DNA of 64,000 nucleotides from Betaproteobacteria bacterium (GTDB lineage: Bacteria > Pseudomonadota > Gammaproteobacteria > Burkholderiales > Burkholderiaceae_E): NCBI GenBank assembly GCA_031421635.1, contig JANOPA010000014.1:15424-79423 (forward strand). Reading direction: 5' to 3'. This document shows, piece by piece, positions 14,252-40,328 of the stretch. How positions within the stretch are numbered: the stretch's first letter is position 1; every line of letters starts with the position of its first letter. Under the pieces are notes generated by a model that saw nothing but the letters and a program-made list of their open reading frames with translations, ran no database searches and was not told the DNA's origin. A program made the position numbers and the translations under genes.

Positions 14252-14255
14252 GAGC

Positions 14256-14936: not shown

Positions 14937-14998
14937 CTTTTTACCTCGACAGGTCTTGATTGTGGCTCGCAGCGCCAATGGTCAAAGCAAGGCCTAAA

Positions 14999-19341: not shown

Positions 19342-19350
19342 TTGGAGTTT

Positions 19351-23469: not shown

Positions 23470-23495
23470 GAGTGAGAGCCTTTCAGAGGATATCG

Positions 23496-24158
23496 TTATC
23501 GACGCGCAAGAGTAGCACTACGGGGAGTAGGAATGTAGGAGTAGCAGTACCGGGTTGGCGGGCGAAGCGTCGCCAAGGCAAGATTGAGCTTGAGCACATT
23601 GATCTGACGTTCACCGATAAAATTGAGGAGCGGCTCTTCCGTCGGCGAGTCCACCAAGTTCTGAACCGTATCGGCAGCCAGGCCGCGAGCTTTGGCGACC
23701 CTGGCTACTTGGTAGCGTGCCGCAGCAGGGCTAATGTGAGGATCGAGACCACTGGCGGAAGACGTCACTAGGTCGACTGGAACAGGTGCCTTATTGCCAG
23801 AATCGGCGCTACGCAAGGCCTCGATCCGCCCTTTTATAGAGTCGATGAGCGCAGGGTTCAATGGACCAAGGTTCGAGCCACTTGAGGCGCTCGCGTTGTA
23901 AGGCATAGGCGCGGTGGCCGAGGGTCGTCCCCAAAAATGTCCTGGGTCCACAAACTGCTGTCCGATCAGCGTCGAGCCGACCGCTTGTCCTTCGCGAAAA
24001 ATTAGGCTGCCACTCGCCTGCACGGGAAATATCGCCTTCGCGAAGCTGGTTACGACCAGTGGGTATGCGAGACCGGTCACAAGAGTGAGTACGAAGAAAA
24101 GCACCAGTGCTGGCCTTAAAAAGGTGTTCATAGCGGTTTTCATTTCAGTTCCATTCAA
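23496..24158 (-). CDS. kdpC: Potassium-transporting ATPase subunit C
   Basis: N-terminal TM '[23 protein letters not shown]'. Conserved 'ASGSLIF', 'FWGRPSA', 'SSGSNLGP' and '[17 protein letters not shown]' blocks. It appears intact. The start is ambiguous (24158 or 24143), and the C-terminus is ~20 aa longer than usual. Confidence 0.85.
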
Positions 24159-24180
24159 AGTCTTAAAAATAGTGCTTGGC

Positions 24181-26178
24181 TTAGGCTAGATGCAAGGCCA
24201 CCAGCACCAGGTCGATGGCTTTAATCCCAAAGAAGGGCACGATTAATCCCCCCAACCCATAGATCAACATATTGCGACGAAGCAGCGCCGCGGCACCAAT
24301 AGCGCGGTACTTGACGCCCTTGAGCGCTAAAGGAATCAAAAAAACAATGATCAAGGCATTAAAAATTACGGCCGACAAAATCGCTAAAGATGGACTGCCC
24401 AGTTGCATAACGTCAAGTGCGGCCAACTGCGGATAGGTGGTTACAAAAATTGCGGGGATGATGGCGAAATACTTGGCGACATCGTTGGCAATTGAAAACG
24501 TGGTGAGCGAGCCGCGTGTCATCAGTAGGGCCTTCCCGGTCTCCACAATTTCTAGCAGTTTGGTGGGGTTTGAGTCTAGGTCCACCATATTGCCGGCTTC
24601 CTTGGACGCCTGCGTGCCGCTATTCATGGCTACGGCTACGTCGGCCTGTGCAAGTGCCGGAGCATCATTGGTGCCATCTCCGGTCATAGCGACAAGGCGA
24701 CCTTCTGCCTGGTACTTACGAATGAGCTTGAGCTTATCTTCAGGCGTGGCCTCAGCTCTACTAGGCCGAGCACGGTGAGGTCACTCGCGACGGCCAGGGG
24801 AGTACTTCCGCGACGTGCTATTTCGTCGGCCGCACGTAGGACTTCGGGAGGCATCACACCACCTAGTGCTTCGACGTGTCTTCTAATTGCATCAACCGCA
24901 CCCTTACGCAATTTTAAAACGCGACCGTCCAGCTGTTGTCGGTCGATACCACTCATACGGGTTTGGGCAGTGAATGCAATCTCGGTAATGGATCCACAGG
25001 AATTCCCAGGCCCTGCTAGCGGCTGAGTAAAGCCCATCTTCTCTGCGAGTACGATGATGCTGCGTCCCTCGGGCGTTTCGTCGGCCTGTGAAGCTTGCAT
25101 GACGCAAACACCCAGTTGACGCTCGCTCACTCCAGGTGCCGGAAAGAAAGCGCTGGCCTGACGGTTTCCATGAGTGATGGTACCGGTCTTGTCTAGCAAC
25201 AGGACATCGACATCGCTAGCGGCTTCGACTGCGCGACCTGAAGTTGCGATCACATTGGCTTGCATCATTCGACTCATGCCCGCCACCCCATCCGCAGAAA
25301 GCAGGCCTCCGATGGTTGTAGGAATCAGGCACACCAGTAAGGCAACAAGTGCTGTGAGACTCACGGCCGTGCCAGCCTTGGCCGCTTCCACACTGAACAG
25401 CGAGTACGGTAGGAGGGTCACGGTGACCATCAGGAATACGATAGTGAGTGCGACCAGCAAAATAGTTAGTGCAATTTCATTCGGCGTCTTTTGGCGTTTG
25501 GTGCCCTCGACCGTACTAATCATGCGATCAAGAAACGATTCGCCGGGATTCACGGTAATACGTACGACCAGCCAGTCGGACAGCACCTGGGTACCACCGG
25601 TCACGGACGAGAAATCCCCGCCCGACTCACGTACAACAGGCGCGGATTCACCCGTGATGGCGCTCTCGTTCACCGAGGCCACACCTTCAATCACTTCGCC
25701 ATCCAGTGGAATCATGTCGCCTGCATTAACGAGGCACACATCCCCTTTACGCAAGTTGAGCGCCTCTTCAGGTAACCAAGTTCTTCCGTAAAAAATATCT
25801 TCTGTAGCGGATATAAATTTTTTTGCCCAGGTGCTTTTTCAAACTGCGAAGCGACTCGGCTTGGGCCTTGCTACGGCCTTCTGCCAAGGCTTCCGCGAAG
25901 TTTGCGAACAACACTGTGAACCAGAGCCAGGTCGCTATGGCAACGATGAAGCCGAAGGGAGCATCCCCGACGCCTTGGAAAGCTTGTACGGCCAGTACAG
26001 TCGTCAAAATGCTACCGATGTAGACCACAAACATGACGGGGTTACGCCACTGGACACTTGGGCTCAGCTTGCGAAATGATGCCTTAATGGCGGGCTTGAG
26101 GAGCACCGGGTCAAAGATCGAAAGAAAAGTTTTTGTTTGCATTGTATTCACCTCAAAAGTTCCGATGTTTGATGACAT
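24181..26178 (-). pseudogene. kdpB: P-type ATPase subunit KdpB, split into three ORFs
   Basis: There are three fragments: 25768-26178, 24684-25754 and 24181-24687. Lesion 1 is a 1-nt frameshift at the A5 run (plus-strand T5 at 25835-25839), between 'ESLRSLKK' and '[13 protein letters not shown]...[13 protein letters not shown]'. Lesion 2, near 24754, is a deletion of ~48 codons plus a frameshift. It removes the 'KDIVK...TGDN...' segment just before '[39 protein letters not shown]'. Confidence 0.9.
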
Positions 26179-26181
26179 GCT

Positions 26182-27981
26182 TCAATGCCCAACCCAAAGC
26201 ATCAGATGCTCAACCATTGGGCCTAGAGCTAGCCCTGGTACGTAGTTAAGTAAACCCACCAATAGCACGGTGCCGATGAGCAAAACGACAAATAGCGGGC
26301 CATGGGTAGGCATCGTGCCTGCAGTCAAAGGTAGGCGGCTTTTGGCGGCCAATGCCCCGGCAATTGCCAGCACCGGCAAGATGACGCCGAAGCGACCAAA
26401 CCAGATCGTCAAAGCCAACATCCAGTTGTAAAATGGGGTATTGGCCGATAGCCCCGCAAATGCGCTGCCGTTGGTGTTGGCCGCGGAGCTAAAGGCATAG
26501 AAAATTTCGGAAAAGCCGTGCGCACCCGGATTGCTGATCCCGGCTTTGCCGTCGGCGGCTATGACTGCAATCGCCGTGCCCAGCAAGACCAGAATCGGGC
26601 TGACCAAAATCGCAATTGAGGTCAGTTTCATTTCATGGGCTTCAATCTTTTTACCCAAATACTCCGGCGTCCGACCGATCATTAGTCCGGCGATAAACAC
26701 GGTGAGAATGGCAAAAAGGAGCATGCCGTAAAGGCCGCTGCCTGTGTCTCCAAAAACCACTTCACCGAGCTGAATCATCACCATGGGTACCATGCCACCA
26801 ATTGGTGTGAAGGAGTCGTGCATGGCGTTCACCGCGCCGCACGAAGCTGCCGTGGTGATCACGGCAAACAAGCTTGAGGCGGTGATGCCGTAACGCACTT
26901 CCTTGCCTTCCATATTCCCGCCGACCTGCATGACGCTCTCGGTCTGATCTACCCCAAGGGTGCTGAGCAGCGGATTGCCGCTTTGTTCGGCTGGTGTAAT
27001 GACCGTTACGGCGATCACAAACATCACGACCATGGCAGCGAGCACCGCCCACCCCTGGCGCTGATCACCAACCAAGCGCCCGAAGGCAAAGCATAAGGCG
27101 CAGGGGATGAGAAATATGGCGAGCATTTGCAATAAATTACTGAGCGCCGTCGGATTCTCGTAAGGGTGGGCCGAGTTGGCGTTGAAGAAGCCGCCGCCAT
27201 TGGTGCCAATCATCTTAATGGCCTCTTGAGAAGCCACTGGTCCCATGGCCAAAGTCTGCTTTTCGGCTTTCAGATCTTCCATGACCGGTGGGCCCTGCGC
27301 GTCTTTAAGCGCTTGCCCGTCAGTGCCATTTTTTGGCTGTTGGTAACTAGTAACTTCCAAGGTGTTCACTTATCGGTACGGGTCGAAGTTTTGAATGACG
27401 CCCTGTCCGACAAGGAAGACGGCCAATAGCACTGATAGCGGCATCAGTAGCCAAGCGATGATACGGGTAACGTCCACCCAAAAATTACCCACCACGCGTG
27501 TGGATTGAGCAGCAAAACCACGGATAAGTGCAAAGGCGACGGCGATCCCGGTGGCAGCGGAAAAATAGTTCTGAACAGTAAGTGCCAGCATTTGCGTTAA
27601 ATAACTCATGGTGGATTCACCGGCGTAGCCTTGCCAATTGGTGTTGGTCACAAAACTGATTGCCGTGTTGAACGCCGAGTGCGGCGAGACCGGTGCCATG
27701 CCCGCTGGGTTCAGTGGTAGCCAGGTTTGCAGACGCTGCATGCCATAGACCACGAACACACCAATAGCATTGAAAGCTAGTACGGCTAATGCATACTGCG
27801 ACCATGACATCGAGTGGTCAGACGAAGTGCCAGCCAAGCTGAATAATAGTCGCTCTGTCCTCCGCATCCAGTTCGGAAGTTGACCCGAACTTAGACGGGC
27901 CAGCCAAGCACCCAGCGGCCAAGCAACGATGCCCAATAGAGCGAGATAGACGGCCAGCAAAGCCCATGACTTAATACTCAT
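26182..27981 (-). pseudogene. kdpA: Potassium-transporting ATPase subunit A with in-frame nonsense codon
   Basis: ORFs 27370-27981 and 26182-27369 are in the same frame, separated only by a TAA at 27370-27372 ('[16 protein letters not shown]'). Compare E. coli 'NFLPYQAVNTVEG'. The sequence is otherwise collinear with KdpA. Confidence 0.9.
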
Positions 27982-28079: not shown

Positions 28080-28180
28080 GATCGGGCTGCGCTTGTTTTT
28101 TCGAGGTTGTTAAACCCAAAGGTCAGCAAAACCAATACTGTCCACAGCCCTGCAATTGCGGCGAGATACACGGCATCCAT
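28076..28180 (-). CDS. Small hydrophobic peptide (34 aa) upstream of kdpF
   Basis: 'MDAVYLAAIAGLWTVLVLLTFGFNNLEKTSAARS'. Strong SD (GAAGGAGTTATTCATG). The stop overlaps the kdpF ATG (ATGA). Function is unknown and it is not in the ORF track. Confidence 0.4.
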   Translation of the reverse strand: MDAVYLAAIAGLWTVLVLLTFGFNNLEKTSAARS

Positions 28181-28258
28181 GAATAACTCCTTCGTCAAAT
28201 GAATGACCAAAGTTTGCTGGACACCGTGTAAAAACGGGGATGAGATTGAGCAACGGGT

Positions 28259-28281
28259 TGTAAAGAGAGTGTAAAAACGGG
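28259..28281 (-). promoter_or_regulatory. KdpE-box-like direct repeat upstream of the kdp operon
   Basis: The minus strand reads CCCGTTTTTACA-CTCTC-TTTACAACCCG: two TTTACA half-sites with a 5-bp spacer. The E. coli KdpE site, as I recall it, is TTTATA-N5-TTTACA. It lies ~80-100 nt upstream of the first small ORF. A third TTTTTACA copy is at 28227-28234. Confidence 0.45.
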
Positions 28282-28754
28282 CGGCGGGTCACTAAGTCCT
28301 TCGCTGGCTGTAGGGACGCCGAGGATGTCGACCTACGTTTGCTCGTCAGGTTCGCCATCCGGCGATGCAAAGCACCAGAATGGGCCGCCTAGCTGAGCAA
28401 GCGGAAAATGCACAGTCCAAAGTCGATGAATATTTGACGACTATTAATCCAGAAGTTGTTCGCGAGGGACCGTGCAAAGGCTGGCGCTTGGACCGAGCTC
28501 GCGCTTTGGATACTAATAATCCGATCTTTGGGACCTGGCCATTATCAGAATGGGAGGACGAAGCAAGCACACTGTTAGAGTCGAAAAGCTCGGAAACTCC
28601 GTCCGCCGCGATGGCACTTAGCGACAAGACCGGCTCGGCCTTGTTACTTGACGTACCTGCATTCGACCTTCCAAGAGTCAGATTCAACGACAAGTTCTGA
28701 TTGCCTGCACTTTAGTAACCTCAAAGTGTCTGAAGAAGCAGAAATAAGACTGCA

Positions 28755-29375
28755 CTAGGAGAAATCAGGCGTCTCGCCTCGCAGCCATTTCCTGCCTTGC
28801 GCATACAAGGATTCAACCACCATCCCTCGCAAACCTGGCATGTCGCGCTTTACTTTGAAACCGAGCTCAGTTTGTAAATAGGCTAGGTGACGATAGCCTT
28901 CAGGAAAGCCTTTGAGGACTTCGTCATTCAGCTTCATGAGAACGCTTGGGTCGACGGAATCCATCCGATCTTTTTCATAGATGGGTTGACGTCGAACTAC
29001 GCGCCAGCAATCCTGTCCGTCGATAGAACGCTTTTCGAAAAAATCATAAAAGCGACCCGTACACACTACATCAACCAACTCGCCATGCGCCAGACCCCGC
29101 TGATTAATAGTCATTTTGGTCTGAGCAATTGCGCGTTGGTTTTGCACGTCAATGGTCGTGCCGCCCAGAAAATGCAAAATTGAGACGCCGTTCTCGAAAC
29201 CTTTGCGACTGATTTCAATGAAATCGCTCGCAGTACCCTGAAACCAAGTGGCGCACATCCAACCATCGCTGTGCCAAACCGTGCGAAAACGCTCCCAATC
29301 GCCGGCATCTCGCCACAGCGCCCAGTTGTTAATGGTCTCGGTGATATTCAGTTGGTCGATTTGTTTTGGAGTCAT
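28755..29375 (-). CDS. SnoaL-like / NTF2-fold family protein
   Basis: 'INNWALWRDAGDWERFRTVWHSDGWMCATWFQGTASDFIE' is typical of SnoaL_4/NTF2-like proteins. I chose the start at 'MTPKQ' (29375) to avoid overlapping the MCP. Same strand as, and 59 nt downstream of, the last MCP. Confidence 0.7.
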   Translation of the reverse strand: MTPKQIDQLNITETINNWALWRDAGDWERFRTVWHSDGWMCATWFQGTASDFIEISRKGFENGVSILHFLGGTTIDVQNQRAIAQTKMTINQRGLAHGELVDVVCTGRFYDFFEKRSIDGQDCWRVVRRQPIYEKDRMDSVDPSVLMKLNDEVLKGFPEGYRHLAYLQTELGFKVKRDMPGLRGMVVESLYAQGRKWLRGETPDFS

Positions 29376-29434
29376 GGGGCTGGACGGCGTCTCGGTAATG
29401 ACAGAATTTTCAGCATTGTATTCCTCGTGAAAGT

Positions 29435-30976
29435 TCAGGCCAAAGAGGTTTCTCTTATGTCTTTTCGAATGTCTGAAAAAACTCCGCAACACACCCAGTA
29501 GTCCAGTCCCGGAACTTTCTCAAGATAGGTGCTCTTTAGAGAGGCCCGCCCAGTGGCCGGATTACGGACTTCGTAATCTATCCAGCCATTGCCTTGATCC
29601 CGAGCCACGGTGATCGCGGCCTTGACATAAAAAAATCCTTTGGCGTCGGTCAGCTCGAAGGTGTCGGTGCCGATTAGCGTCGGCTCGCCACCGTGGGCCA
29701 ACAAAAACCCGCGAAAATCGGAAAGCACAACAAACAGGTCGCGTTTATGAAATCCGGCCTCACGGTCGTTGAATTTGGCGGCAGCGGCGCTTGGGCCCCG
29801 GCGCGTCACCTCGGCCACTGCGCGCTGGACAAGTTCAACACAGGCCTCGCGGCTATTAAAGCGCGAGGCCTTCAACCCGACTAGACTTTGATCCAAGGCG
29901 AAGGCCTCCTGCTCAAGACCCGCCGCCAATTTTGCAACTTGATCGACGGCACTTGCGTTACTCTGTGTGAGGTTGGCCATTTGCTCGACCGCACTCTTGA
30001 TCTGTCCAACACCAGTGCTTTGCTCGCTGGAGGCGTTAGCGATGTCGTCGATGAGATCTTGTGCCTGTGCGACTTGAAGTAGAACATCTTCAAGAATTTT
30101 GGCGCTGTTGTTGGAGGCGACCATCCCACCTTGAATTTGCCGGGTGGCCGAAGTGATGCGCTCTCGGATGACTTTGGCGACATCGCCACTTCGATTGGAA
30201 AGCGCTCTGACTTCATCCGCGACCTGCGCAAAGCCTCGACCGTTGTTGCCTGCGCGCGCGGCCTCGATGGTCGCGTTTAGCGCAAGCATATTGGTTTGCG
30301 TAGCGAAGCTTTCAATCAGATCGATAATTGCAATCACCTTTTGGGACTTACGACCTGTTTCGTTGACTGCATTGCTAATTGCGATCACTTGATCGGCTCC
30401 CGCATAGGCAGCCTCCGTTGATTGTTTGGCGAGATCTTTGACTTCACGGCAGTTTTGTGCATTTCGTTCAATTGACGCGGTGAACTGCTCCAGACCTGCG
30501 CCAGTTTCTTCGAGCATCGCGGCGATTTCTTCGGCTTGGGTCAACAATCGATTGGCGTCCTGCGAGGTTTGCTTGCTGTTGTGGAGCAGGTTTTCCGCGA
30601 TCCTTGCGGTCTCGTCAGTCAATACCTTAACTCGCTCAGCATATCCAAGAACGAAGGGAACCACGCCTTGGTTGCGCCACCGGCTGTCGATATCCTTGGC
30701 GTCAAATTTCCAGTCACCGCTCAAGGCGCGCTTCAATAAATCGGCGCCGATGCTCAAATGCCGTTGGCGGTAGTAAGCGAATCCAAGGAAAAGGTAGGTC
30801 CCGGCAATCAATAGACCCACCACAAGCGCGGTTCTAAATTGACCCGGAGGAAAAATCGCTACGGCGAGTAAGGTGATCAAAATGAAGGCGCTACAGATGG
30901 GTCCAAATGCAGTGAGGCCAAAGCGCTGGTAGACCCTCAAGACAGGCCAGCCAAGAATTTCAAGAGTTTTACGCAT
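29435..30976 (-). CDS. Methyl-accepting chemotaxis protein: TM hairpin, signalling domain, C-terminal Cache-like domain
   Basis: Two closely spaced TM helices ('[16 protein letters not shown]' - PPGQFR - '[20 protein letters not shown]') leave no periplasmic domain. MCP hairpin tip '[42 protein letters not shown]'. The last ~150 aa read '[26 protein letters not shown]...[58 protein letters not shown]', which matches the single-Cache-2 pattern. Alternative starts are at 30982 and 31021. Confidence 0.85.
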
Positions 30977-32561
30977 GATCATGCTCCCGCTCAAAAACGC
31001 CGGCCGTGACACAGGCTTCATGGCCTTGAACCAACTGGGCGTAGACTAATTTATCCACAATCTTCCCGCTTGCGGGAAGCTTCACCTTACAGACCTGCCA
31101 GGATTTTTGCGTCGTTCGGAGTTGTTTACGGATAATCTCAATGTCGACGGGCAAATGGGTACGGGCATCGTTACTAAGATCTTTTCCGACGATGTTTGAA
31201 ATCGCGCTATGGGCGAGGCAAGGCCCATCAAAGCTCCAGATCGCGACAGCGTGTTCACACTGGTCCAGACTCGGATTGGCGTTGGAGAGATTAATGCTAT
31301 CGCAGACTTCCTGAAGCCCTCGTTCTTCGATGTCTTGAATGACTTGCTTCACCAGGCCGACAACGGTGTCCGTGTTCTTAAAGCGATCCTCTCCAAAGAC
31401 ATCGATCTTTGCGAGTAAACCAAGCGCGTCTTTGTTGGTGATGGCACTGACTCTCACCATATCATCGGCAGCAGCAGCATTTTGCTGTGTAATGGTGGCC
31501 ATTTGTTCGACGGCTGCCTTGATCTGTTCGGAGCCGCTGGTTTGTTCGGCTGACGCCGAAGCGATGTCTTGAATCAACTGATGAGTTTGCGCCACCAGGT
31601 CTGAAATTATTTTCATGGACTGCGATGCCGCTTCTGTTGACGTGCGGCTCGAGGACAGCTCTTCCAAGCATTCGCCGACTATGAGCTTTGCGTCCGCGGC
31701 GGCGAGAGAGGCGCGCTGGGCGAGCTTGCGCACTTCGGTGGCGACTACGGCAAAGCCACGGCCATGCTCGCCAGCGCGAGCCGCTTCGATGGCCGCATTG
31801 AGCGCCAATAAGTTGGTTTGAAACGCAATGTCCTCAATCATGGCGATAGAGCCCATCACATTCATCGACTCGGTAGAGGAGTCGCCCATGGTGTCCAGTA
31901 AGCTGTCCAACGCACCTTGAGCAGAGAGCACAAGATGACTCGCTTTTTCAGCCCGCTTGGCCGCTTCTTGTGTATTCACCATATTGCGTTCGACGGTCGC
32001 TGAAAACTCTTCCATCGCAGAGGCGCTCTCCTCCAACATACTTGCGATTTCTTCGGCACGATGAGACAAGGCTGCGGTGTTGCTGTCGAGTTGTTTACAT
32101 GAACCCGCCACTTCGTTGGCAGCTTGTCGCGTCGAGCCTGCCAACTGTTGAATTCTCGAATGTAGCTTGTAGGTCAGGTGTTGCACGATGTATTTCGGAT
32201 CTGGCTCTCGCTGTGCTGACCAACGCCCGTTGGTGAGTTTTTCAAAAATTCTTTGGGAAGTTTTTCGAACTTCAACCATATGCATTTGCACTGAAAATGC
32301 CACATAAATCGTGAAGGCCGCAAATAAGCTGAACAGCATGGGATGCGTGTCTGCTATGCCTAGTGAAGCCATACCGAAGAAAAGCACCATCATCACGCCG
32401 ACCACGGCATTTCCAAAGGCAACACCTGCCTTTGACAAGAGCAAGACCATGGGAGCGGTGATTCTCGCTAATAGATATTGAAGGGCTTCGTGCCCGTCAT
32501 GGCCTTTGCCGATCAAATCTTTTGTGATGTGATCTGGCTTACTGTGAAGATCATGTTTCAT
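30969..32561 (-). CDS. Methyl-accepting chemotaxis protein (paralog): TM hairpin, signalling domain, divergent C-terminal Cache-like domain
   Basis: TM hairpin '[17 protein letters not shown]...[16 protein letters not shown]'. Hairpin tip '[42 protein letters not shown]'. C-terminal ~140 aa '[28 protein letters not shown]...[36 protein letters not shown]'. The start overlaps the cheB stop. Confidence 0.85.
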
Positions 32562-33661
32562 GAGGAGAACCGTTGACTAAGTGTATGAATAATTTCTTGA
32601 GGAAAATCTTGAAGACTAATTTGCCGATGCGAGTGGCCGTTCTCAAACACTACCTTAGGCATACCATAGATGGCGCAGCTTGGCTCGTCTTGGCTAAGCA
32701 CGTAGCCGCCGCTCGTAAAAATATCCGCAGTACCGTTAGCACCGTCACGTCCCATGCCCGTGAGCACACAGGCCAAGCTTGCATCACCAAAAGCAAGGGC
32801 GACTGAAGAAAATAGTTTGTCGATGGACGGCCTGTATAGATCGGAGGGCAAGGGCTTGTCCAGTTTTACGTAAACATTCAGCGACTCCCGCCGATGCACT
32901 TGAAAATGGCAACCCCCTGGAGCGATGTAGGCGGTTCCTGGACAAAGTACCTCGCCGTGCTCCGCGAGTTTCACTCTGATGGCCTTTACCGAGCGGCTGA
33001 GCCGGTTGGTATATAGGGTCGTGAAGGATGTGGGCATGTGAATGGCAATCACGATAGGAGGGGAGTGCGCGGGCAGTTTTTCTAAAATGCTTGTGACCGC
33101 GCTTGGACCCCCAGTGGATGCGCCAATAGCGAGAATCGCTTGTGATCGGGGAGCAAGAGTGGAGGCCGCGGCAGGCGCCTTGCGAAGGCGCGTCTGCGCT
33201 GCCGAAATCCTCGCATTTGAATCGCTTAGATTTTGACGAATGCGCTTCGATCTAAAAGCGTGTCCCGCTTCGTATACTTTGATCAGTAATTCCTCGGCAT
33301 AATCTGAGAGGGTGCGTGTGTGCGGCTGCAGCCCTGGTTTGAGCACAAAATCGAGTGCTCCAAGCGCAAGGCAATCCAAGGTAATTTGAGCGCCTTCCCG
33401 AGTCATGCTGGATACCATAATGACGGGTATAGGACACTTGGAGAGGACATGCTTGAGGATTGTCGTCCCTTTCAGGTGTGGCATCTCGACGTCAAGGGTA
33501 ATAACATCGGGACCTAAACGCTCAATTGCTGCAACGACCTCTGATCCGTCCTGGCAAAAGCCGACGACGGAGATTTCGGGGTTCGATCTTAGGATCTTGG
33601 CGATCACACCGCGCGCGACTACTGAGTCGTCTACGATCAGAACTTTGACAGGTGCATCCAT
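32558..33661 (-). CDS. cheB: Chemotaxis response regulator protein-glutamate methylesterase
   Basis: Receiver domain ('VLIVDDS', '[10 protein letters not shown]', 'KP') plus a CheB methylesterase domain ('[12 protein letters not shown]', 'HMP', 'GMGRDG'). Confidence 0.9.
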
Positions 33662-33662
33662 C

Positions 33663-34301
33663 TTAGGATTTTTCGAAGAGGCTGATGTCGGGCTTTAGAG
33701 TGGTGCTGCTTTGCACTAAGGCCGCTGCGTGGCGGCTTTCTCTGTGCTGGACGCGGTTCAAGCTTACTTCGATATGGCGGCACTCAGGTTGGCTGAGCTG
33801 GGTGGCCCAATAGAGTCTGCGTGCAAAAATCCCTCCAGTGTCTTGACCACGTAGCTTTATCCTCTCTTGCCTTAAGTACTGCGCTGCAAATTGAATATTG
33901 CACAGTCCCACATTGGTGAGTTCAGTGAGGATCTGACCTCCCCCGAAAATCCAGGCCAGCATCCGATCCTTCTTGGCACCTTGGGACAAGAGTTCATTGA
34001 TGAGAAGTTCCATGGCGTAACTTCCGTAGCGCGCGTTTCGATTGGTCGGGTCCGCGTTCGATATCTCAGGCAAGCCAATCTCTCGTTGGGCGGGAAGCAT
34101 AAAGTGATTCATGCCGATCAAGCCTGCAGCTTGGTCCGTGAGGCAAACCGCGACACATGAGCCAAGAACCGTCATTAGGCCTTCGGAGGGTTTGGGATTG
34201 ACACCTTCAGACGACGCTTTTCGCGATGTTGCAAACTCACCTGGCAGGAGTCGACGGACCCAACTGGAATGTTCGCGATCAAAAAAGCGATGCGGTTTCA
34301 T
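33663..34301 (-). CDS. cheD: Chemoreceptor glutamine deamidase CheD
   Basis: 'LGSCVAVCLTD' and 'GMNHFMLP' are typical of the CheD family. Coupled to cheR (4-nt overlap). Confidence 0.85.
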   Translation of the reverse strand: MKPHRFFDREHSSWVRRLLPGEFATSRKASSEGVNPKPSEGLMTVLGSCVAVCLTDQAAGLIGMNHFMLPAQREIGLPEISNADPTNRNARYGSYAMELLINELLSQGAKKDRMLAWIFGGGQILTELTNVGLCNIQFAAQYLRQERIKLRGQDTGGIFARRLYWATQLSQPECRHIEVSLNRVQHRESRHAAALVQSSTTLKPDISLFEKS

Positions 34302-35104
34302 AGCGCTCGACGCGGGCTAAACACGGTCCGACCGCGGCTTTGGAATAATTCGTCGGAGTGAATGAGCATCTCCGTGTGCCCAGTGAAAAACAGGCCATCC
34401 ATTTTCAAGTGACGAGCGACGTACTCTGCAAACTGACGTTGTGTGGTCGTATTAAAGTAAATCATGACGTTACGACAGAAGACAGCGTCAAGAGGCTTCC
34501 AAGGGAGAACGCTTCCCTTGGCGGCCAGATTAAAAGGCTTGAACTCGACGAGTCGTTTCAGCTCGGGTTTGACTTGAACTTGGGCTTGATTGATCGAGTC
34601 GAAATACTTTGAGATCAGTCCAGGCTTGAGATGGAGGAGCTCGGACTTCGAATAGATACCTTGCTTCGCGAGGCTTAGTGCGTGGGTGTCAATGTCGCTT
34701 GCTAACACGAAGGCTTGCTTGCGATCAAGTAGACTGGGGTAGGCCTGAGTTAGAGCAATCAGTATGGAATAAGGCTCTTGCCCTGATGAGCATCCCGCGC
34801 TCCAAATCTTGGCGCTGGAAAAGTTTTCCTTGAGATGATCCACCAGGATTGGGAAGTGGTGAGCCTCTCTGAAAAATGAGGTCACATTGGTGGTCATCGC
34901 GTTGACGAAACCTTCGACTTGGGTTCGATCTTTTTCGACCAAGTCGACGTAGTCCGCAAGCTTGGTAAGGCCTAGGCTGCGCATCGGGCGGCTCAAGCGA
35001 TTCGAAGCCATTTGACGCTTACTCGGGTTCAGTTCAATCCCGGCATGTTTTCCAAGTAAGCTGCGAACGGATGCGAACGCCTGATCATCAAGAATCAGGC
35101 TCAT
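34298..35104 (-). CDS. cheR: Chemotaxis protein methyltransferase CheR
   Basis: 'TNVTSFFREAHHF', 'IWSAGCSSGQEPYSI' (SAM-binding) and 'DAVFCRNVMIYF'. 4-nt overlaps on both sides. Confidence 0.9.
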   Translation of the reverse strand: MSLILDDQAFASVRSLLGKHAGIELNPSKRQMASNRLSRPMRSLGLTKLADYVDLVEKDRTQVEGFVNAMTTNVTSFFREAHHFPILVDHLKENFSSAKIWSAGCSSGQEPYSILIALTQAYPSLLDRKQAFVLASDIDTHALSLAKQGIYSKSELLHLKPGLISKYFDSINQAQVQVKPELKRLVEFKPFNLAAKGSVLPWKPLDAVFCRNVMIYFNTTTQRQFAEYVARHLKMDGLFFTGHTEMLIHSDELFQSRGRTVFSPRRAL

Positions 35105-35649
35105 GAGAATGTCGCCTCTTCAGTGACTCGTGCCACCGCGTGGAGTTCTTCGGGTTGGAGGACCTTCTGTAAGTCAATCAGGAGCACAACCTGTTCTCCA
35201 AGCTGAGTCATTCCAATTAAATACCGAATATCAATCGCCATGGTGGTTCGGGGAACCGTCTGAATCGCGGCCGAGTGAATGCTGATGACATCTAGAACGC
35301 TATCCACCTGAATCCCGACTTTCCGAGACTCAAGCTCACTGATCAGCACCAGGTCCTGGCGACCTGCGACCTTTTCACGATTCAGATTGAAGCGCTCCTT
35401 GAGATCGATCACTGGAACAATTTCACCGCGAAGACTGGTGACGCCGACAACATAGGAGGGTGCGTGGGCTACTCGCGTCAGGTGGGCGCCGGTTCGAACT
35501 TCCCGGATTTGCAGCAGGCTAACGGCGTAGGTATGGCCCGAGACCTTGAAGGTCAGGAATGATTGGCTAACAGCATGGTCGGTCGGCTTGGCCATGATCG
35601 AGTCCTCTGGATGTGACGGTTGGGTCGCGTGAACGGAGATCTTGAGCAT
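35101..35649 (-). CDS. cheW: Chemotaxis coupling protein CheW
   Basis: CheW-like domain ('FLTFKVSGHTYAVSLLQIREV', 'VVGVTSLRGEIVPVIDL', 'IGMTQLGEQVVLLIDL'). I chose the start at the ATG at 35649, which has an AGGA SD 16 nt after the cheA stop. The track start at 35784 would overlap cheA. Confidence 0.85.
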   Translation of the reverse strand: MLKISVHATQPSHPEDSIMAKPTDHAVSQSFLTFKVSGHTYAVSLLQIREVRTGAHLTRVAHAPSYVVGVTSLRGEIVPVIDLKERFNLNREKVAGRQDLVLISELESRKVGIQVDSVLDVISIHSAAIQTVPRTTMAIDIRYLIGMTQLGEQVVLLIDLQKVLQPEELHAVARVTEEATFS

Positions 35650-35665
35650 CTTTTTTCCTGGTCGG

Positions 35666-37642
35666 TTACGCTGTGACGAGTTGCGCGGTGCCAATGGTTC
35701 GACCAAGAGCGATCGAATCCAAGACGAAAGTGATTTTCCCAGCGCCGAGTACGGTCGCGCTTTGACAATACTTTGCAGGCCCAAGATTTTTCTCGATGTT
35801 CTTGATCACAATTTGCTTTTCACCAATAATTCGATGCACGCCCAGTAGGCTTAGATCGTCACCGTTGCGTAGAACAATGCCCAGGAGTGATCCGGGTGCC
35901 GGATGTAAGGGTGTCGTTTCCATCAGATCGGCGAGGTGTGCATACGGGACAAGCGCGGTGCGGAGCGGGAAAAGCTTTTGGCCATTCGGCAGCTCTTGCA
36001 AGCCGGAAGGGTGCAGTTGAATGCATTCGGAAATCGAACTCAGCAGGATTGCGTATTGTTCGCCGTCGCATTCGACGATGAGCGCATCGGTCAAAGCCAA
36101 AGTGAGGGGCAGGACGATTGAAAAGCAAGTCCCCCGTCCGGGTGTGCTGTGGACCTGTAGTTCACCATTAAGCGACTTGATCGCTTCGGCTACGGCGTCT
36201 AAGCCGACCCCTCGACCCGACCAATGATCGACCTGAGCAGCGGTTGAAAAGCCCGGCGAGAAAATTAGCTCCGCCCATTGTGCGTCGCTGCGCGGTGTGT
36301 GTTCGTCCGCCAAACCTTTCTGGATTGCTTTGGTACGAATTGCCTGAATATCAAATCCACGTCCATCTTCTTCAATGTGAAGTACGAAGCTTGCGCCGCG
36401 CTGTTCAGCCCGAAGGCGAAGGGTCGCGGTTTCTGCTTTTCCTAAGGAGATGCGTTCGCTGGGTGACTCTAAACCGTGATCCAATGCGTTGCGAATCAAG
36501 TGAGTGACAGGATCGATCAGACGCTCAATGATATTGCTGTCGAGCTCGATTTGCTCACCGACAATGATGACTTGGACTCGTTTGCCGAGTTCAACTTTAG
36601 CGTCGCGCACGACTCGCTCAAAGCGCTTAAACAAAGTCGTGACGGGCGACATGCGCATGGAAAGAATTGCGTCCTGAAGTTGTCGAGTTTGCCGACCGAG
36701 ACGCTCAAAGAGTTCAATAACTTCTTGATCGATCACCTTGCTTTCAAGCTCGGCCTGAAAAATGGCCAGATCTGCGAGATGGCCAAGAAGTAAATCAATT
36801 TTTTCACTTGGAACCTGAATGGCGCGCTGCTCTCGTCGTCGCTCGACTTGGATCGCGGTAGGCTCATCGATATTGGCGTCGTCGTTTTCTTGAACTTCCG
36901 TAATCTCAAGATCGCAAAGGTCGTCGATCCATTCGAATAGGGAGCGAATCTCTTGCGCGGAACGAGTGGTTTCCAGAATGGTTGACCAATGCAGAAAGTT
37001 CGGCTCCGTGGCGTAGCCTGGAGCTTGATTTTCCCAGGCAATAACCTCTTTCTCGTCCCATAAAGCCGTTGTTGTAAGTGTTCCTTGTTCGGCAAGATTG
37101 TCTAGATAACGCAGAGGGTCGTTGCCACAGCTTCGCATGCCAGGATGAGGTCGAAAGCGCAGTACGAATTTATGTGTTCCTGATTTTCGCCTGAAATCAG
37201 AAGAGGATGTTGACTTTGAGAGAGCTTCGCTAGCGTCCAGAGCTTCTTGAATTTGATTCAGCTTCCGACTAAGTGCATCGACACGCTGAGTGGAAACATC
37301 GCCCTGCTTTTGTTGGGCACTACCTACCATTGAGCGCAGAAGATCTAAGGCACTTAAGAAAAGACTGATGTGCTCATCGTTGAGTTTGAGGTGGGAGGCG
37401 CCACTTATACGTCGATAGGTTTCCAGAACGGTTTCAAGTGCGTGCGCAAACTCTGCCATTTGATTAAAGCCGAGCGTTCCTGCAGAACCCTTGATCGAAT
37501 GAATTGCTCGAAATGCGGCATTAATGCTTTCGTTAATTGGGACTTGCTTTTCAATGCAAAGCAATGCCTCTTCGGCTTGATCTAGGCAGTCAAGCACTTC
37601 TTCAAAAAATGCAGAGTGAAATTGACTTAAGTCAATTGACAT
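35666..37642 (-). CDS. cheA: Chemotaxis histidine kinase CheA
   Basis: Hpt domain 'FRAIHSIKGSAGTLGF', a dimerisation domain, HATPase ('HLIRNALDHGLE', 'DDGRGFD', 'GRGVGLDAV') and a C-terminal CheW-like domain. The ATG at 37642 overlaps the end of the upstream cheY by 11 nt; the track start at 37651 is a TTG. Confidence 0.9.
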   Translation of the reverse strand: MSIDLSQFHSAFFEEVLDCLDQAEEALLCIEKQVPINESINAAFRAIHSIKGSAGTLGFNQMAEFAHALETVLETYRRISGASHLKLNDEHISLFLSALDLLRSMVGSAQQKQGDVSTQRVDALSRKLNQIQEALDASEALSKSTSSSDFRRKSGTHKFVLRFRPHPGMRSCGNDPLRYLDNLAEQGTLTTTALWDEKEVIAWENQAPGYATEPNFLHWSTILETTRSAQEIRSLFEWIDDLCDLEITEVQENDDANIDEPTAIQVERRREQRAIQVPSEKIDLLLGHLADLAIFQAELESKVIDQEVIELFERLGRQTRQLQDAILSMRMSPVTTLFKRFERVVRDAKVELGKRVQVIIVGEQIELDSNIIERLIDPVTHLIRNALDHGLESPSERISLGKAETATLRLRAEQRGASFVLHIEEDGRGFDIQAIRTKAIQKGLADEHTPRSDAQWAELIFSPGFSTAAQVDHWSGRGVGLDAVAEAIKSLNGELQVHSTPGRGTCFSIVLPLTLALTDALIVECDGEQYAILLSSISECIQLHPSGLQELPNGQKLFPLRTALVPYAHLADLMETTPLHPAPGSLLGIVLRNGDDLSLLGVHRIIGEKQIVIKNIEKNLGPAKYCQSATVLGAGKITFVLDSIALGRTIGTAQLVTA

Positions 37643-38009
37643 ATTGATCAACCAGAATCTGATTGATTTTGTTGGTTAAGGACTCTTCCGTGAAGGGCTT
37701 GGCGATCCAATCCATTGCACCGGCTTGTTTTGCCTTTTCAATGTTCTCGTCCTTCGCTCCTTTGGCAAGCACCACGATTGGAGTGTTCTTGAAATGCTCG
37801 ATTAACTTCAGACGCTGAATCAAAGTGATCCCGTCCATGCCTGGCATGTTGATATCGGTGATCACCAAGTGAACTCGTCGACCTTTGGCGATGGTCAGAG
37901 CTTCCTCCCCAGAACTTGCATGAAAAACTCGGTGTCCAAATTTCTGGAGGACGGAGGCTACGATATTGCGTATGGACGCAACATCATCAACAATCATAAT
38001 TCTTGCCAT
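37632..38009 (-). CDS. CheY-like single-domain response regulator (atypical switch residue)
   Basis: 'IMIVDDV', 'LVITDINMPGMDG' and 'AKPF' are present. At the position of the conserved Thr/Ser (CheY T87) the sequence is 'VVLAKGAK', i.e. Ala. Confidence 0.85.
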   Translation of the reverse strand: MARIMIVDDVASIRNIVASVLQKFGHRVFHASSGEEALTIAKGRRVHLVITDINMPGMDGITLIQRLKLIEHFKNTPIVVLAKGAKDENIEKAKQAGAMDWIAKPFTEESLTNKINQILVDQYVN

Positions 38010-38015
38010 AGTTTT

Positions 38016-38378
38016 CTACCCTAAGACTCGGGGAAGCACGTCAATCAGTGCCTGTGGGTTAAAGGGTTTCACGATCCATCCTGTGGCTCCTGCCGCTCGG
38101 CCCGCGGCCTTCATGTTGGATCCCGCCTCGGTTGTCAGTACTAAGATGGGTTTGGCCTGAGTGCTTGGCTGAGCCCGTAAGGCCTTGATAAGGTCCAAGC
38201 CACTCATGTTCGGCATGTTCATGTCGGTAATAATCAGATCGAAAGGCTCCGTTTTACAAGCGTCCAGCGCAGCCTCGCCGTCGACAGCGGAGCGGACTTC
38301 ATGGCCCGCCTTTTCAAGCGTGAACACAACCATTTGGCGCATGGTGACTGAGTCGTCGACAATAAGTATTTTTGCCAA
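38016..38378 (-). CDS. cheY: Chemotaxis response regulator CheY
   Basis: Canonical 'ILIVDDS', 'LIITDMNMPNMSG', 'VLTTE' and 'GWIVKPF'. Confidence 0.9.
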   Translation of the reverse strand: MAKILIVDDSVTMRQMVVFTLEKAGHEVRSAVDGEAALDACKTEPFDLIITDMNMPNMSGLDLIKALRAQPSTQAKPILVLTTEAGSNMKAAGRAAGATGWIVKPFNPQALIDVLPRVLG

Positions 38379-38390
38379 AATTTACTCCTT

Positions 38391-39782
38391 TCAGGCGAAC
38401 AGATCGACATGGTTGGATGCCTTCAAACTGGGAGACGCTTTTTCACGCTCAATTCTCGACAGGTCTTGTTCGAATGATGTGCGCTGGCTCGCAGTCGCAC
38501 CGTGCTGTGCGAGGCGATGACTGGCCCCGACGAGATCGACCACAAGTGGTTCTGGGGCCGCATGGAGGTTGGACCCGTTAATGAGATTGCGAGTCCGCAC
38601 TGCAATGGCTTCAAGATGAAGGGCGTCTACTGAAGTGAGTTTTTGCGTCATGATGTCGTGATACTGCATGGCGACAATTGAGGCTTGAATATGTGACTCG
38701 GTGTCTTTGCTCAGTTCGTTGAGCGCCTTGACGGTACTTCGGGTTTCATCGAGTTTCTGTTGAATAGCTGTGCTGACTGCGGCCACTTCGGTGCTTTCTT
38801 TTTGCGCCGTGTGCATGAGACTTGTGAGGTTACTTTGCATGTCCATAGTAACTTGGCTCAGCGCAGTTCGGATCTCTTCGACGTCTGCTCTTAGTTCTTG
38901 CAGTGTCCTTCGATGATTTTTTAGAAAACTCCACGGATCTAGGGTGTTGGAAGATTGTGCGCCGATCTCGATAGGGCTTTCAAGGTCCAAGCCGGAGCCC
39001 ATGACGTTCAAAGCCATTTGTTTGGCGGCTATATCTGCTTCTCCGAGTAGGTCGTCCGCACGAGCTGCAGTCGTCATGGCGGCTTGCTGCTTTTCGATCA
39101 GACGCGCGGCATGCTCGGCGTTATCTAGCAACTGGTAGTTCTGCCGCTTAAGAATTGTGGAAGCCAATAGGGCCAGGTCCGAGAGTGAAGCCTGTTGGTC
39201 GTTTCGTGTGCTGGTTGATTCCAATAGAGTCTTAGAAAGGTGGTTCTGAGTGTCCTGATTTCGTTCGATCTCGCGAATACTATTGGCAAGTTCGAGTGCC
39301 GAATGGGTGGAAATGTTGATCACTGAGCGAATCTCGATTTGAGCGCTATTGCTGCTGGCGAGCGCCTTCCAAGCATAGTTCGACCACTCTTTGCTTTGTA
39401 TCGCGTGGGCACCAAACCTGCTTGGTAGAAAATCTGTTTCAATCCCGAGTTCGGGCTCAGCGCGGTCGATGATTTTTTGTTGTGGGTGTGGAGTCGTTTG
39501 TGATAATGAAGTGAGAGTGGGCTCAATCTCACCCGTAGAACTCGCGTTTACTGATATGGCAGGGGCTGTTTTTTTGATCTTCTTTTTTATGCTTTTTTGT
39601 ACAAATTTAGGCGATAAAACTTCGGCGTAAATAAAGGCAGCGGCGCCCAGCACAGCGATCAAGCTACATGCTATGGCCCAAAGCGGTGCGAACAAAACCG
39701 TGATCAAGGCAGGCGCGCTGACTGCGAGGAGTACTCGGGCCAGACGCGGGCTGCGCCACATCCGTTTGATCAGTTTGTTCAA
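38391..39782 (-). CDS. Membrane-anchored coiled-coil protein; candidate CheZ-like phosphatase (hypothesis)
   Basis: N-terminal TM hairpin 'VLLAVSAPALITVLFAPLWAIACSLIAVLGAAAFIYA' and a long helical, Q/E/L-rich region. The motif 'VAMQYHDIMTQKL' (38637-38669) resembles the CheZ active site 'MAQDFQDLTGQVI' (D-x3-Q). The gene sits directly upstream of two cheY genes. The start may be TTG at 39782 or ATG at 39761. I am moderately confident it is coding and much less confident of the function. Confidence 0.6.
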   Translation of the reverse strand: MNKLIKRMWRSPRLARVLLAVSAPALITVLFAPLWAIACSLIAVLGAAAFIYAEVLSPKFVQKSIKKKIKKTAPAISVNASSTGEIEPTLTSLSQTTPHPQQKIIDRAEPELGIETDFLPSRFGAHAIQSKEWSNYAWKALASSNSAQIEIRSVINISTHSALELANSIREIERNQDTQNHLSKTLLESTSTRNDQQASLSDLALLASTILKRQNYQLLDNAEHAARLIEKQQAAMTTAARADDLLGEADIAAKQMALNVMGSGLDLESPIEIGAQSSNTLDPWSFLKNHRRTLQELRADVEEIRTALSQVTMDMQSNLTSLMHTAQKESTEVAAVSTAIQQKLDETRSTVKALNELSKDTESHIQASIVAMQYHDIMTQKLTSVDALHLEAIAVRTRNLINGSNLHAAPEPLVVDLVGASHRLAQHGATASQRTSFEQDLSRIEREKASPSLKASNHVDLFA

Positions 39783-40045
39783 AACGACACCTCCCTTGCC
39801 GACAGGAATTGCGAGCGCAGGCCGTAACGATCTAGATAGACCGCTAGATGATCAAGGTCGCAAAAGAGCACCTTGTTTCGAAGGCAAAGCATGTCCTGAA
39901 GCGTCGGATATTCGAGACGAAAAAGAGCCTGGCAGCTCACGCTGATGCGTGCAGTCGACGAAGCCATAGCCAGCGGCTCGCTGATCAGCGAGCGCAGCAC
40001 CGGCATGGCATTGCCGTCATCTATCGAAAGACGATGTTCAGTCAC
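39779..40045 (-). CDS. Small protein (88 aa), possibly STAS-like; first gene of the che operon
   Basis: GTG start with a GAGGGA SD 5 nt upstream. The stop overlaps the next gene's start. Weak resemblance to short STAS/anti-sigma-antagonist folds ('ISVSCQALFRLEYPTLQDMLCL...LDHLAVYLDRYGL'). The family assignment is tentative. Confidence 0.4.
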   Translation of the reverse strand: MTEHRLSIDDGNAMPVLRSLISEPLAMASSTARISVSCQALFRLEYPTLQDMLCLRNKVLFCDLDHLAVYLDRYGLRSQFLSAREVSF

Positions 40046-40328
40046 TCAATTCCCTCTAGCTAGTACAGTGGGCCTGGCGTCTAAGCGCGCCTAGGGCTCC
40101 GATAGGTCTATTCTGAGTCGAGTGCGCTCGCCCATCAATGGCTAGCGAATTAGTGAGCGATCAACGTGGAGTAAGTGCAGACGAACGGACTTTTGGGGCG
40201 CTGCTCCTTGGCCAAAACTGTCGTTTTATTTTCTGAAAGGAGTGCCTGGAGCGCGAGCGGTAGAAGGAGGTGAACAACGACCGGCGAGAAATCGGTCCAT
40301 TTTCGGATGCCTTGTGCAGTCCACGCCC

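Follow-up and report, generated by a model that had tools for sequence, protein, structure and literature searches.

An F7-type chemosensory operon with predicted cytoplasmic Cache receptors and a candidate CheZ-type phosphatase

We analyzed a stretch of 64,000 nucleotides from a genome assembled as Betaproteobacteria bacterium (GCA_031421635.1, contig JANOPA010000014.1, positions 15,424–79,423 of the forward strand; hereafter the window, numbered from its first letter). The minus strand of the window carries a compact chemosensory operon of eleven genes, which is intact and under purifying selection. The operon appears to be an F7 chemosensory module in its ancestral stage 1/2 form, an assignment made from receptor heptad class, gene order and neighboring genes and not from the class hidden Markov models (HMMs) of MiST. 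Modules of this ancestral kind are already known; the features of note here are a Cache sensor that seems to have been re-internalized to the C-terminus of the receptors, and a candidate membrane-anchored phosphatase of the CheZ type, the 463 amino acid protein p463. We read the locus as a whole as an ancestral F7 module that senses the cytoplasm and has a CheZ-like phosphatase of its own, and place the probability of this reading at about 0.6. The function, input and output of the ancestral F7 systems (Che2, cluster III and Che1) are a standing question, and this operon provides a stripped-down natural variant of them.

Gene order, class and conservation of the operon

Genes were identified from a listing of open reading frames (ORFs) together with Pfam and NCBIfam scans, and starts were taken from genes that had been called independently on identical contigs from metagenomes, which fixed those of cheA (37642), cheW (35649), MCP2 (30976) and SnoaL (29375). 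Between 40045 and 28755 the minus strand holds twelve ORFs, eleven of them tightly packed (40045 down to 29435) and the twelfth a SnoaL_4 gene. The eleven run in the order orf88 (STAS-like), p463, cheY-a, cheY-b, cheA, cheW, cheR, cheD, cheB and two genes for methyl-accepting chemotaxis proteins (MCPs), MCP1 and MCP2 (Table 1). Neighboring genes overlap by 4 nt at orf88/p463, cheW/cheR, cheR/cheD and cheB/MCP1, by 8 nt at MCP1/MCP2 and by 11 nt at cheY-b/cheA; the remaining operon junctions are gaps of 12, 6, 16 and 1 nt, and 59 nt separate MCP2 from SnoaL. CheA, CheW, CheR, CheD and CheB form a complete set. The best NCBIfam model for CheA was the equivalog for E. coli-type CheA of the F7 class (PRK10547), with a score of 350 bits that lies below the model cutoff. 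The ORFs, domain scans and gene calls thus agree with the gene list, order and packing put forward in an earlier interpretation of the DNA (hereafter the sequence-only reading).

Three of the products, p463, MCP1 and MCP2, each contain a single hairpin of transmembrane helices joined by a loop of 2–6 residues, as judged from hydropathy and, for p463 and MCP2, from AlphaFold2 (AF2) models. The hairpins span residues 12–31/34–55 in p463, 10–41/46–85 in MCP2 and about 45–68/74–93 in MCP1. Lys/Arg-rich segments flank the hairpins at both ends, indicating that both termini are cytoplasmic and that nothing substantial faces the periplasm, which is the topology that had been proposed for all three proteins.

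The signaling domains of the two receptors aligned without gaps to the NCBIfam Tcp model (residues 141–390 of MCP1 to model positions 266–515, and residues 150–410 of MCP2 to positions 281–541), and likewise to the models for Tsr, Tar, Trg and Vibrio Aer2. In Foldseek comparisons, the AF2 model of MCP2 (predicted local distance difference test score, pLDDT, of 77) matched Tsr (3zx6) with a TMt of 0.86 and a root-mean-square deviation (rmsd) of 2.8 Å over 302 of 303 columns, compared with a TMt of 0.40 for the 44H receptor of Thermotoga (2ch7). The gap-free alignments to 36H models, the fit to Tsr and the poor fit to the 44H receptor together indicate that both receptors belong to heptad class 36H.

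F7 clusters have been described as a series of stages. Stage 1 comprises a STAS antagonist, cheY, cheA, two cheW genes, aer2, cheR, cheD, cheB, a gene of the mcpA-like kind, STAS and a Ser phosphatase; in stage 2 the last three of these genes have moved to the front and one cheW has been lost, and clusters of both stages are without cheZ (PMC7184735). In stages 3 and 4, cheW and cheR flank the gene of a Tar-like receptor that has a periplasmic domain, a cheY/cheZ pair derived from F6 is present, and STAS and McpA-like genes are missing; stage 4 adds flhDC-motAB (PMC7184735). Betaproteobacterial F7 systems have been reported as stage 3/4, with predicted control of the motor (PMC7184735). The module in the window is stage-2-like: STAS-like and mcpA-like genes stand at the front, there is one cheW, cheD is kept and cheZ is missing. 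The closest reference systems are Che2 of P. aeruginosa (PA0173–PA0180), cluster III of V. cholerae (VCA1088–VCA1096) and Che1 of S. oneidensis (SO_2117–SO_2126). With these it shares 36H receptors that lack a periplasmic domain, a cheY-cheA-cheW...cheR-cheD-cheB core, a STAS-like gene (anti-sigma antagonist-like) at the 5' end, an McpA-like gene next to the cluster, and the lack of a canonical cheZ and of nearby flagellar genes. The 36H receptors, the gene order and the McpA-like neighbor therefore favor the resemblance to Che2/F7 systems, rather than to a classical flagellar set, that had been suspected (PMC7184735).

The module also departs from the ancestral F7 systems in several ways. Its host is an uncultured betaproteobacterium, whereas McpA-like and stage 1/2 systems have been described in gammaproteobacteria. 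No Aer2 (PAS-heme, poly-HAMP), nor any other gene, lies between cheW and cheR. The receptors here are instead two membrane-anchored proteins with a C-terminal sCache_2 domain, encoded after cheB. The module has a further cheY, of the T87A type, and no serine phosphatase gene, and its McpA-like protein is without the MCP tip.

The two CheY proteins differ at the T87 position. CheY-a has the equivalents of D12, D13, D57, T87 and K109, and CheY-b has 'VVLAKG' in place of 'MVTAEA', putting Ala at T87. This Ala is kept in all four orthologues and is thus a feature of CheY-b, not a sign of decay, in keeping with the earlier view that the second CheY is atypical. T87 mutants of E. coli CheY can be phosphorylated and are impaired in conformational signaling, an analogy that suggests CheY-b acts as a sink or modulator.

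The first gene, orf88, is conserved in position and sequence (30–44% identity) at three related loci, L010, L011 and L012. Pfam STAS_2 was matched weakly by three of the four orf88 orthologues, with a best E of 1.6e-3, and the window copy had no Pfam match; the STAS-like label given to it before is to this extent upheld. The segment at the position of the STAS DSSG motif reads EYPT, in which the Tyr and Pro are invariant, and contains no conserved phosphorylatable Ser.

All eleven genes occur in identical order on four further metagenomic contigs (L010, L011, L012 and L014), and at all five loci p463 or its homologue (53% identity in L010 and about 40% in the other three contigs) lies between orf88 and cheY-a. 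Compared with relatives of 79–87% identity, the ratio of nonsynonymous to synonymous substitution rates (dN/dS) was 0.06–0.12 for p463 and 0.29–0.41 for orf88. These ratios and the conserved eleven-gene unit confirm the claim that the operon is intact and selected. It is also rare: one genome per species was scanned, and the p463 family was present in three of 185,579 species. The three carriers are all labeled 'MAG: Betaproteobacteria bacterium' (MAG, metagenome-assembled genome) and come from stream or glacier metagenomes, and the contigs identical to the window come from similar metagenomes.

The C-terminal Cache domain of the receptors

The sequence-only reading had described receptors with nothing exposed to the periplasm. 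They are not without an input domain, as the C-terminus of MCP2 shows. The domain scored 52.3 bits against Pfam sCache_2 (PF17200; cutoff 25), and phmmer searches of PDB sequences with it returned the carboxylate-sensing Cache domains 5g4y (6e-5), 2qhk, 4exo and 4k08. In the AF2 model of MCP2, residues 376–501 (pLDDT 80–90) formed helices and a five-stranded sheet, and Foldseek matched this fold to 4k08, 4exo, 2qhk, 5g4y (TMt 0.74, rmsd 2.4) and TlpB (3ub6). The C-terminal 139 amino acids of MCP1, which have no Pfam match of their own, are a diverged copy, with 26% identity to the MCP2 domain (BLASTP 2e-10). About 30 homologue clusters keep the Cache domain, and it is conserved in every full-length homologue, including three at only 30% identity. 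Within the domain W465, P473 and K481 are invariant and the motif AHGGEP is conserved.

In other receptors, such as PscD, McpP and Adeh_3718, sCache_2 sits between the first and second transmembrane helices. Here it departs from this usual extracytoplasmic placement and follows both transmembrane helices and the signaling hairpin. As both helices precede it, the Cache domain must be cytoplasmic, and the input of the receptors is likely to be cytoplasmic as well. No Pfam match to PAS or HAMP was found anywhere in the cluster. According to Upadhyay et al. 2016 (PMC4822843), Cache families are mainly extracellular, and the cytoplasmic C-terminal Cache of these receptors is a counter-example to Cache domains as extracellular sensors.

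Sensors on the cytoplasmic side are known from Aer, with PAS beside HAMP, and as C-terminal domains from TlpD of H. pylori (CZB), Tlp1 of Azospirillum (PilZ) and DcrH of Desulfovibrio (hemerythrin). As in these receptors, the sensor of MCP1 and MCP2 would act laterally on the signaling bundle and not through a transmembrane helix; unlike theirs, it belongs to sCache_2, a principally extracellular family.

To consider possible ligands, we mapped the residues that bind the carboxylate ligand in PscD (5g4y; PMC5062169) onto MCP2 through a HMMER alignment. Two of them are kept, His103 (within AHGGEP) and Lys156 (the invariant K481), and Tyr143 corresponds to Y or F, which makes a carboxylate-type ligand plausible for the MCP2 domain.

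Many MCP2 orthologues (for example P0026 and P0029–P0043) have an extra conserved tail after the Cache domain, ...(V/L)T(G/A/D)L(R/P)ENS, that MCP2 of the window does not have, and all MCP1 orthologues finish in E(R/K/Q)(E/D)xxHA. Neither tail is a CheR-type xWxxF pentapeptide.

p463, its CheZ-like motif and competing explanations

The second gene of the operon encodes p463, which we studied with two alignments, one of its close family (A1) and one of 46 distant relatives with a mean identity of 18% (A2). The close family comprises 18 clusters in 5.8 billion proteins, and an HMM scan of 1.84 billion representative proteins recovered 55 members of the p463 family at E < 1e-3. Common to all of the close family are an N-terminal hairpin, a linker, three long helices, the motif AMQYHDxxxQK, about 55 disordered residues and a VDLF end, with a hairpin pattern, SPRLxR...P..P.W...YAE.LSPK, that is invariant in A1. 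In the AF2 model of p463 (pLDDT 65), the hairpin leads through a disordered linker to long helices (124–192, 200–262 and 283–401), and residues 402–455 form a disordered tail. Across the 46 distant relatives only Q373, D376, Q380 and the terminal Phe are near-invariant; Q[FY]xD[IVLFM]xxQ is present in 43 of these and a C-terminal [VILF][ED][LIF]F in 38.

By its C-terminal peptide and gene position, p463 resembles the named McpA-like receptors, PA0180/CttP, VCA1088/Mlp44 and SO_2117. These always adjoin F7 clusters, cannot be assigned to a heptad class, and end in EVELF, EVELF and EIELF, respectively; the same type of C-terminal peptide is shared by all 39 McpA-like receptors of Ortega 2020 Suppl. 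Table 12 (PMC7184735). p463 ends in HVDLFA and its relatives in VDLF, IDLF, VEIF or VELF, that is, in the McpA type [DET][VIL][EDV]L[FY]. Like the McpA-like receptors, it adjoins an F7 cluster, has no sizeable periplasmic domain, seems to have a short or unclassifiable signaling region and carries a C-terminal peptide of the [DET][VIL][ED]L[FY] type. Unlike them, it has no detectable MCPsignal domain, only a tip remnant, 'QMALNVMGSG'. Among the 46 relatives 19 do match Pfam MCPsignal (best 5e-31), and the tip decays in steps from 'QTSLLALNADIEAARVGEFGRGF' in P0162 to the remnant in p463. A comparison of the p463 family with the operon MCP family by hhalign found no similarity past the transmembrane loop. 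Taken together, p463 is probably a divergent McpA-like protein that has lost the MCP tip. Its former description as a membrane coiled-coil protein was correct as to the membrane hairpin and incomplete otherwise, in that it is McpA-like and has a CheZ-like DxxxQ motif.

We also considered the C-terminus of p463 as a pentapeptide for CheR or CheB and rejected this, as position 2 is Val and not aromatic and the McpA pentapeptide binds no P. aeruginosa CheR (PMC7184735).

The conserved motif of p463 resembles the active site of CheZ, which, like NarX-type phosphatases, uses DxxxQ as its catalytic pair (PMC3510030). The family consensus of p463, I-I-A-M-Q-F-Q-D-I-T-x-Q-K-L, compares with I-M-M-A-Q-D-F-Q-D-L-T-G-Q-V-I in CheZ, for which we used a sequence identical to chain Z of 1KMI. 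The hhalign register equates D376 and Q380 of p463 with D143 and Q147 of CheZ. In both the p463 family and E. coli CheZ, QF(Q/H)D(I/L)TxQ lies on a long bundle helix and is followed by a disordered linker of roughly 50–80 residues and a short hydrophobic/acidic C-terminal peptide ending in Phe; the median distance from the Asp to the C-terminus is 87 residues in p463 relatives versus 71 in CheZ. Like cheZ, the p463 gene adjoins cheY. Weak matches to Pfam CheZ (PF04344; E 1.3e-4 to 0.1) occurred in 18 of the 46 relatives and were centered on the active-site region, the best being P0189 (133 of 203 model positions, E 1.3e-4). When a profile of the motif region was searched against 177,635 distinct PDB sequences, CheZ (1KMI_Z) was the best natural match, over 60 residues. 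p463 differs from CheZ in being anchored in the membrane by its N-terminal hairpin, in being twice as long, in its apparent derivation from an MCP-like hairpin, and in having neither significant global sequence similarity to it nor a match to the Pfam CheZ model at threshold. We found no paper on a CheZ-like DxxxQ motif in McpA-like proteins in the literature that we searched.

From these likenesses, that p463 is a CheZ-type CheY phosphatase is a possibility to which we give slightly less than even odds. We are somewhat more tentative about its extension, under which p463 and the other McpA-like proteins would all be MCP-derived, membrane-anchored CheZ-type phosphatases with a QFxDxxxQ active site and an xVELF/xVDLF tether for CheY. 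If true, this would account for the lack of cheZ in F7 systems of stages 1 and 2, and would make sense of McpA-like proteins in the array of another system as a device that dephosphorylates CheY at the array. The CheZ-type reading may thus explain the whole McpA-like family, giving a biochemical role to PA0180, VCA1088 and SO_2117 among others, and would put the DxxxQ mechanism, known from CheZ and HisKA_3, into a third structural setting. In the lineage of the window, loss of the MCP tip would then have left a dedicated phosphatase, paired with receptors that re-internalized their Cache domain. Three relatives of p463 (P0177, P0189 and P0191) are only 200–250 amino acids long, have no transmembrane segment and give the best Pfam CheZ matches; they may be a soluble CheZ-like bridge between CheZ and McpA-like proteins, or truncated gene calls.

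Several results weigh against the reading of the locus as a cytoplasm-sensing module with its own phosphatase. p463 and the profile of its close family had no sequence match in Pfam, NCBIfam or the PDB, CheZ and MCPsignal included, and a Foldseek comparison of its model was uninformative, with generic helical bundles as the only matches (designed bundles, ClyA, TolQ and, at rmsd 58, an MCP). The hhalign register with CheZ had a probability below 10%, all CheZ matches of the relatives fell below the Pfam gathering score of 30.7 bits, and the motif-profile match to 1KMI_Z had an E of 0.36, with only designed repeat proteins, through summed repeats, above it. The HMM of the whole family (A2) scored 2.3 bits against E. 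coli CheZ, a score equaled or exceeded by 84 of 2000 shuffled sequences (p ~0.04), and the relatives also match DUF948, a coiled-coil family, so composition bias may contribute. As to McpA, generic MCPs dominated the results of a profile search with the broad family, among which there was no named McpA; cluster look-ups gave 'Acidiferrobacterales MCP' as the sole name, and tblastn against plasmids was empty. On the receptor side, PscD Tyr90 is replaced by Leu and both Trp residues that sandwich its ligand (Trp92 and Trp145) by Val in MCP2, which leaves the ligand class wide; the MCP2 pocket differs from that of PscD and is probably larger.

In the mechanism that we propose, the C-terminal arm of the receptor would run back to the membrane, placing the Cache domain beside the HAMP/adaptation region, the position of PAS in Aer. 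A small molecule of the cytoplasm, perhaps a metabolite with a carboxylate group, would bind the Cache domain and modulate CheA through lateral contacts, with adaptation by CheR, CheB and CheD. CheA would phosphorylate CheY-a, the output, and CheY-b would serve as sink or modulator. p463 is pictured as a helical bundle, dimeric and tethered to the membrane, that would use its C-terminal VDLF to capture CheY~P and D376/Q380 to dephosphorylate it, in the way that CheZ uses D143/Q147; it would thereby supply the phosphatase that is missing from F7 stages 1 and 2. The STAS-like orf88 may connect the module to a partner-switching output. The operon makes several of these elements directly testable: a cytoplasmic sCache_2 input, a tip-less McpA-like partner with DxxxQ and tail, and a CheY with a fixed T87A.

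The role of p463 is where this proposal meets its most serious competitor. p463 could be a decayed, non-catalytic remnant of an McpA-like receptor that works as a scaffold or adaptor, for example by tethering CheR, CheB or CheD or by docking into another array, and we regard this as a substantial, if minority, possibility. McpA-like receptors are known in F6 arrays with no enzymatic role reported for them, every statistical link to CheZ is sub-threshold, and the loss of the MCP tip suggests decay. However, a dN/dS of 0.06–0.12 argues against decay of the protein, and the only near-invariant residues of the superfamily (Q373, D376, Q380 and the terminal Phe) correspond to the catalytic pair and a tether, as in CheZ. 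Tethering of CheR sits poorly with the finding that the McpA pentapeptide binds no P. aeruginosa CheR (PMC7184735), and immediately downstream of the gene lie two cheY genes, with no further CheY phosphatase in the system.

Two further alternatives concern the system as a whole. Were the operon the flagellar chemotaxis system of its host, CheY-a would bind FliM and p463 would act as its CheZ. The host is betaproteobacterial, the E. coli flagellar system is itself of the 36H/F7 class, and a CheZ-like function beside cheY suits motor control. As the analysis covered the 64-kb window, control of a flagellar motor keeps some probability, which counts against the main reading. Yet the gene content is like stage 1/2 and unlike stage 3/4, the receptors appear to sense the cytoplasm, and no flagellar, pilus or further che genes lie within the 64-kb window, where the lack of flagellar genes had already been remarked; we consider this explanation unlikely. 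Less probable still is that the receptors have no dedicated sensor and either respond, by way of their hairpins, to the state of the membrane or the proton motive force, or serve as scaffold only, in which case the sequence would not reveal the input. This would fit the lack of a periplasmic domain, of any Pfam HAMP or PAS N-terminal to the signaling domain, and of a Pfam match for the C-terminal domain of MCP1. It conflicts with the last 130 residues of MCP2, a confident sCache_2 by sequence and fold to which the MCP1 tail is homologous, and with a Cache core of His, Lys, Trp and Pro that is kept in all orthologues down to 30% identity.

Genomic context and surroundings

The eleven-gene unit occurs in two different genomic contexts, which suggests that the module moved as a unit. 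In the first (the window and L010), nudC-aroQ-aroE lie on one flank and SnoaL on the other. In the second (L011, L012 and L014), a tRNA-Met(CAT) gene lies about 230 nt upstream (L011, 9424–9500; L012, 622–698; L014, 654–730) and rpoD/dnaG lie downstream; beyond the tRNA gene, this lineage has a giant adhesin/RTX gene or genes for an ATP-binding cassette (ABC) transporter. SnoaL had been listed last, as a possible twelfth gene of the operon. It occurs in the window and L010, is absent from L011 and L014, where other genes take its place, and is thus a neighbor and not a member of the conserved unit.

Table 1. Features of the operon and its flanks, in window coordinates
Feature	Position	Strand	Assignment and evidence
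Conserved leader, ~200 nt, upstream of orf88	40046..40250	-	blocks shared by window, L005, L006 and L010
orf88 (88 aa)	39779..40045	-	first gene; stop overlaps p463 start by 4 nt
p463 (463 aa)	38391..39782	-	probable divergent McpA-like membrane protein, candidate CheZ-type CheY~P phosphatase
p463 transmembrane hairpin, residues 13-55	39618..39746	-	hydropathy, alignment A1, AF2
p463 DxxxQ motif AMQYHDIMTQK, residues 371-381 (D376, Q380)	38640..38672	-	invariant in alignment A1
p463 C-terminal peptide VDLFA, residues 459-463	38394..38408	-	conserved in A1
cheY-a	38016..38378	-	single-domain response regulator; Pfam Response_reg 1.2e-28
cheY-b	37632..38009	-	CheY paralogue, Ala at T87; Pfam Response_reg 2.8e-28
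cheA	35666..37642	-	Pfam Hpt, dimerization, HATPase_c and CheW-like domains
cheW	35101..35649	-	Pfam CheW 1.5e-32; 182 aa gene call
cheR	34298..35104	-	Pfam CheR 8e-50 and CheR_N
cheD	33663..34301	-	Pfam CheD 2.7e-22; NCBIfam CheD PRK13487 4e-45
cheB	32558..33661	-	receiver and methylesterase; Pfam CheB_methylest 3.7e-52 and Response_reg
MCP1	30969..32561	-	hairpin, HAMP-like linker, 36H signaling domain, diverged C-terminal Cache-like domain; MCPsignal 8.5e-36
MCP1 Cache-like domain, residues about 395-530	30972..31379	-	homology to MCP2 Cache domain
MCP2	29435..30976	-	hairpin, HAMP-like linker, 36H signaling domain, C-terminal sCache_2; MCPsignal 2e-34
MCP2 sCache_2, residues 376-501	29474..29851	-	Pfam sCache_2 8e-14
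SnoaL_4 gene	28755..29375	-	Pfam SnoaL_4 4.8e-12; 59 nt downstream of MCP2

Upstream of orf88 lies a conserved leader with sequence blocks, for example TCCGTTCGTCTG and CATTGATGGGC.AGC, that are kept as far as L010, with a protein identity there of only ~53%. An Rfam scan of the whole window, leader included, gave no match; a scan for sigma-70 promoters and terminators found nothing above shuffled sequences, with no promoter signal above chance in the leader, and a sigma-54-like pattern was not present in the leader either. A sigma-28-like element in the leader was dropped because its spacing was unsuitable.

The operon had been described as lying between heavily decayed loci, and this is true of one side. 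On the downstream side the kdp operon (21353–27981, minus strand) is disrupted: a break at 27369/27370 leaves kdpA as two ORFs, kdpB lies in three ORFs (24181–24687, 24684–25754 and 25768–26178) and kdpD is split into 22765–23469 and 21353–22723, with kdpC intact. On the upstream side aroE, aroQ, dctPQM, nudC and the genes that follow are intact. The interval between kdpA and SnoaL (28110–28700) holds overlapping ORFs without a family, 28346–28693 on the minus strand and 28365–28700 on the plus strand, the latter called as a gene on the contigs identical to the window.

Further away, a remnant of a resistance-nodulation-division (RND) efflux system on the plus strand (8539–10903) consists of a 531 amino acid AcrB fragment and, after it, an outer-membrane factor that is truncated. 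An intact RND system (OEP, HlyD_D23 and AcrB; 14999–20718) lies on the opposite strand to the remnant, next to a two-component pair at 12794–14978. Near the start of the window (79–6535, plus strand) is a cluster of three genes, which encode a DUF2126 protein (putatively an amidoligase that has a transglutaminase domain), an ATP-grasp/Alpha-E protein that is circularly permuted, and a protein resembling transglutaminase; the trio is conserved and poorly characterized.

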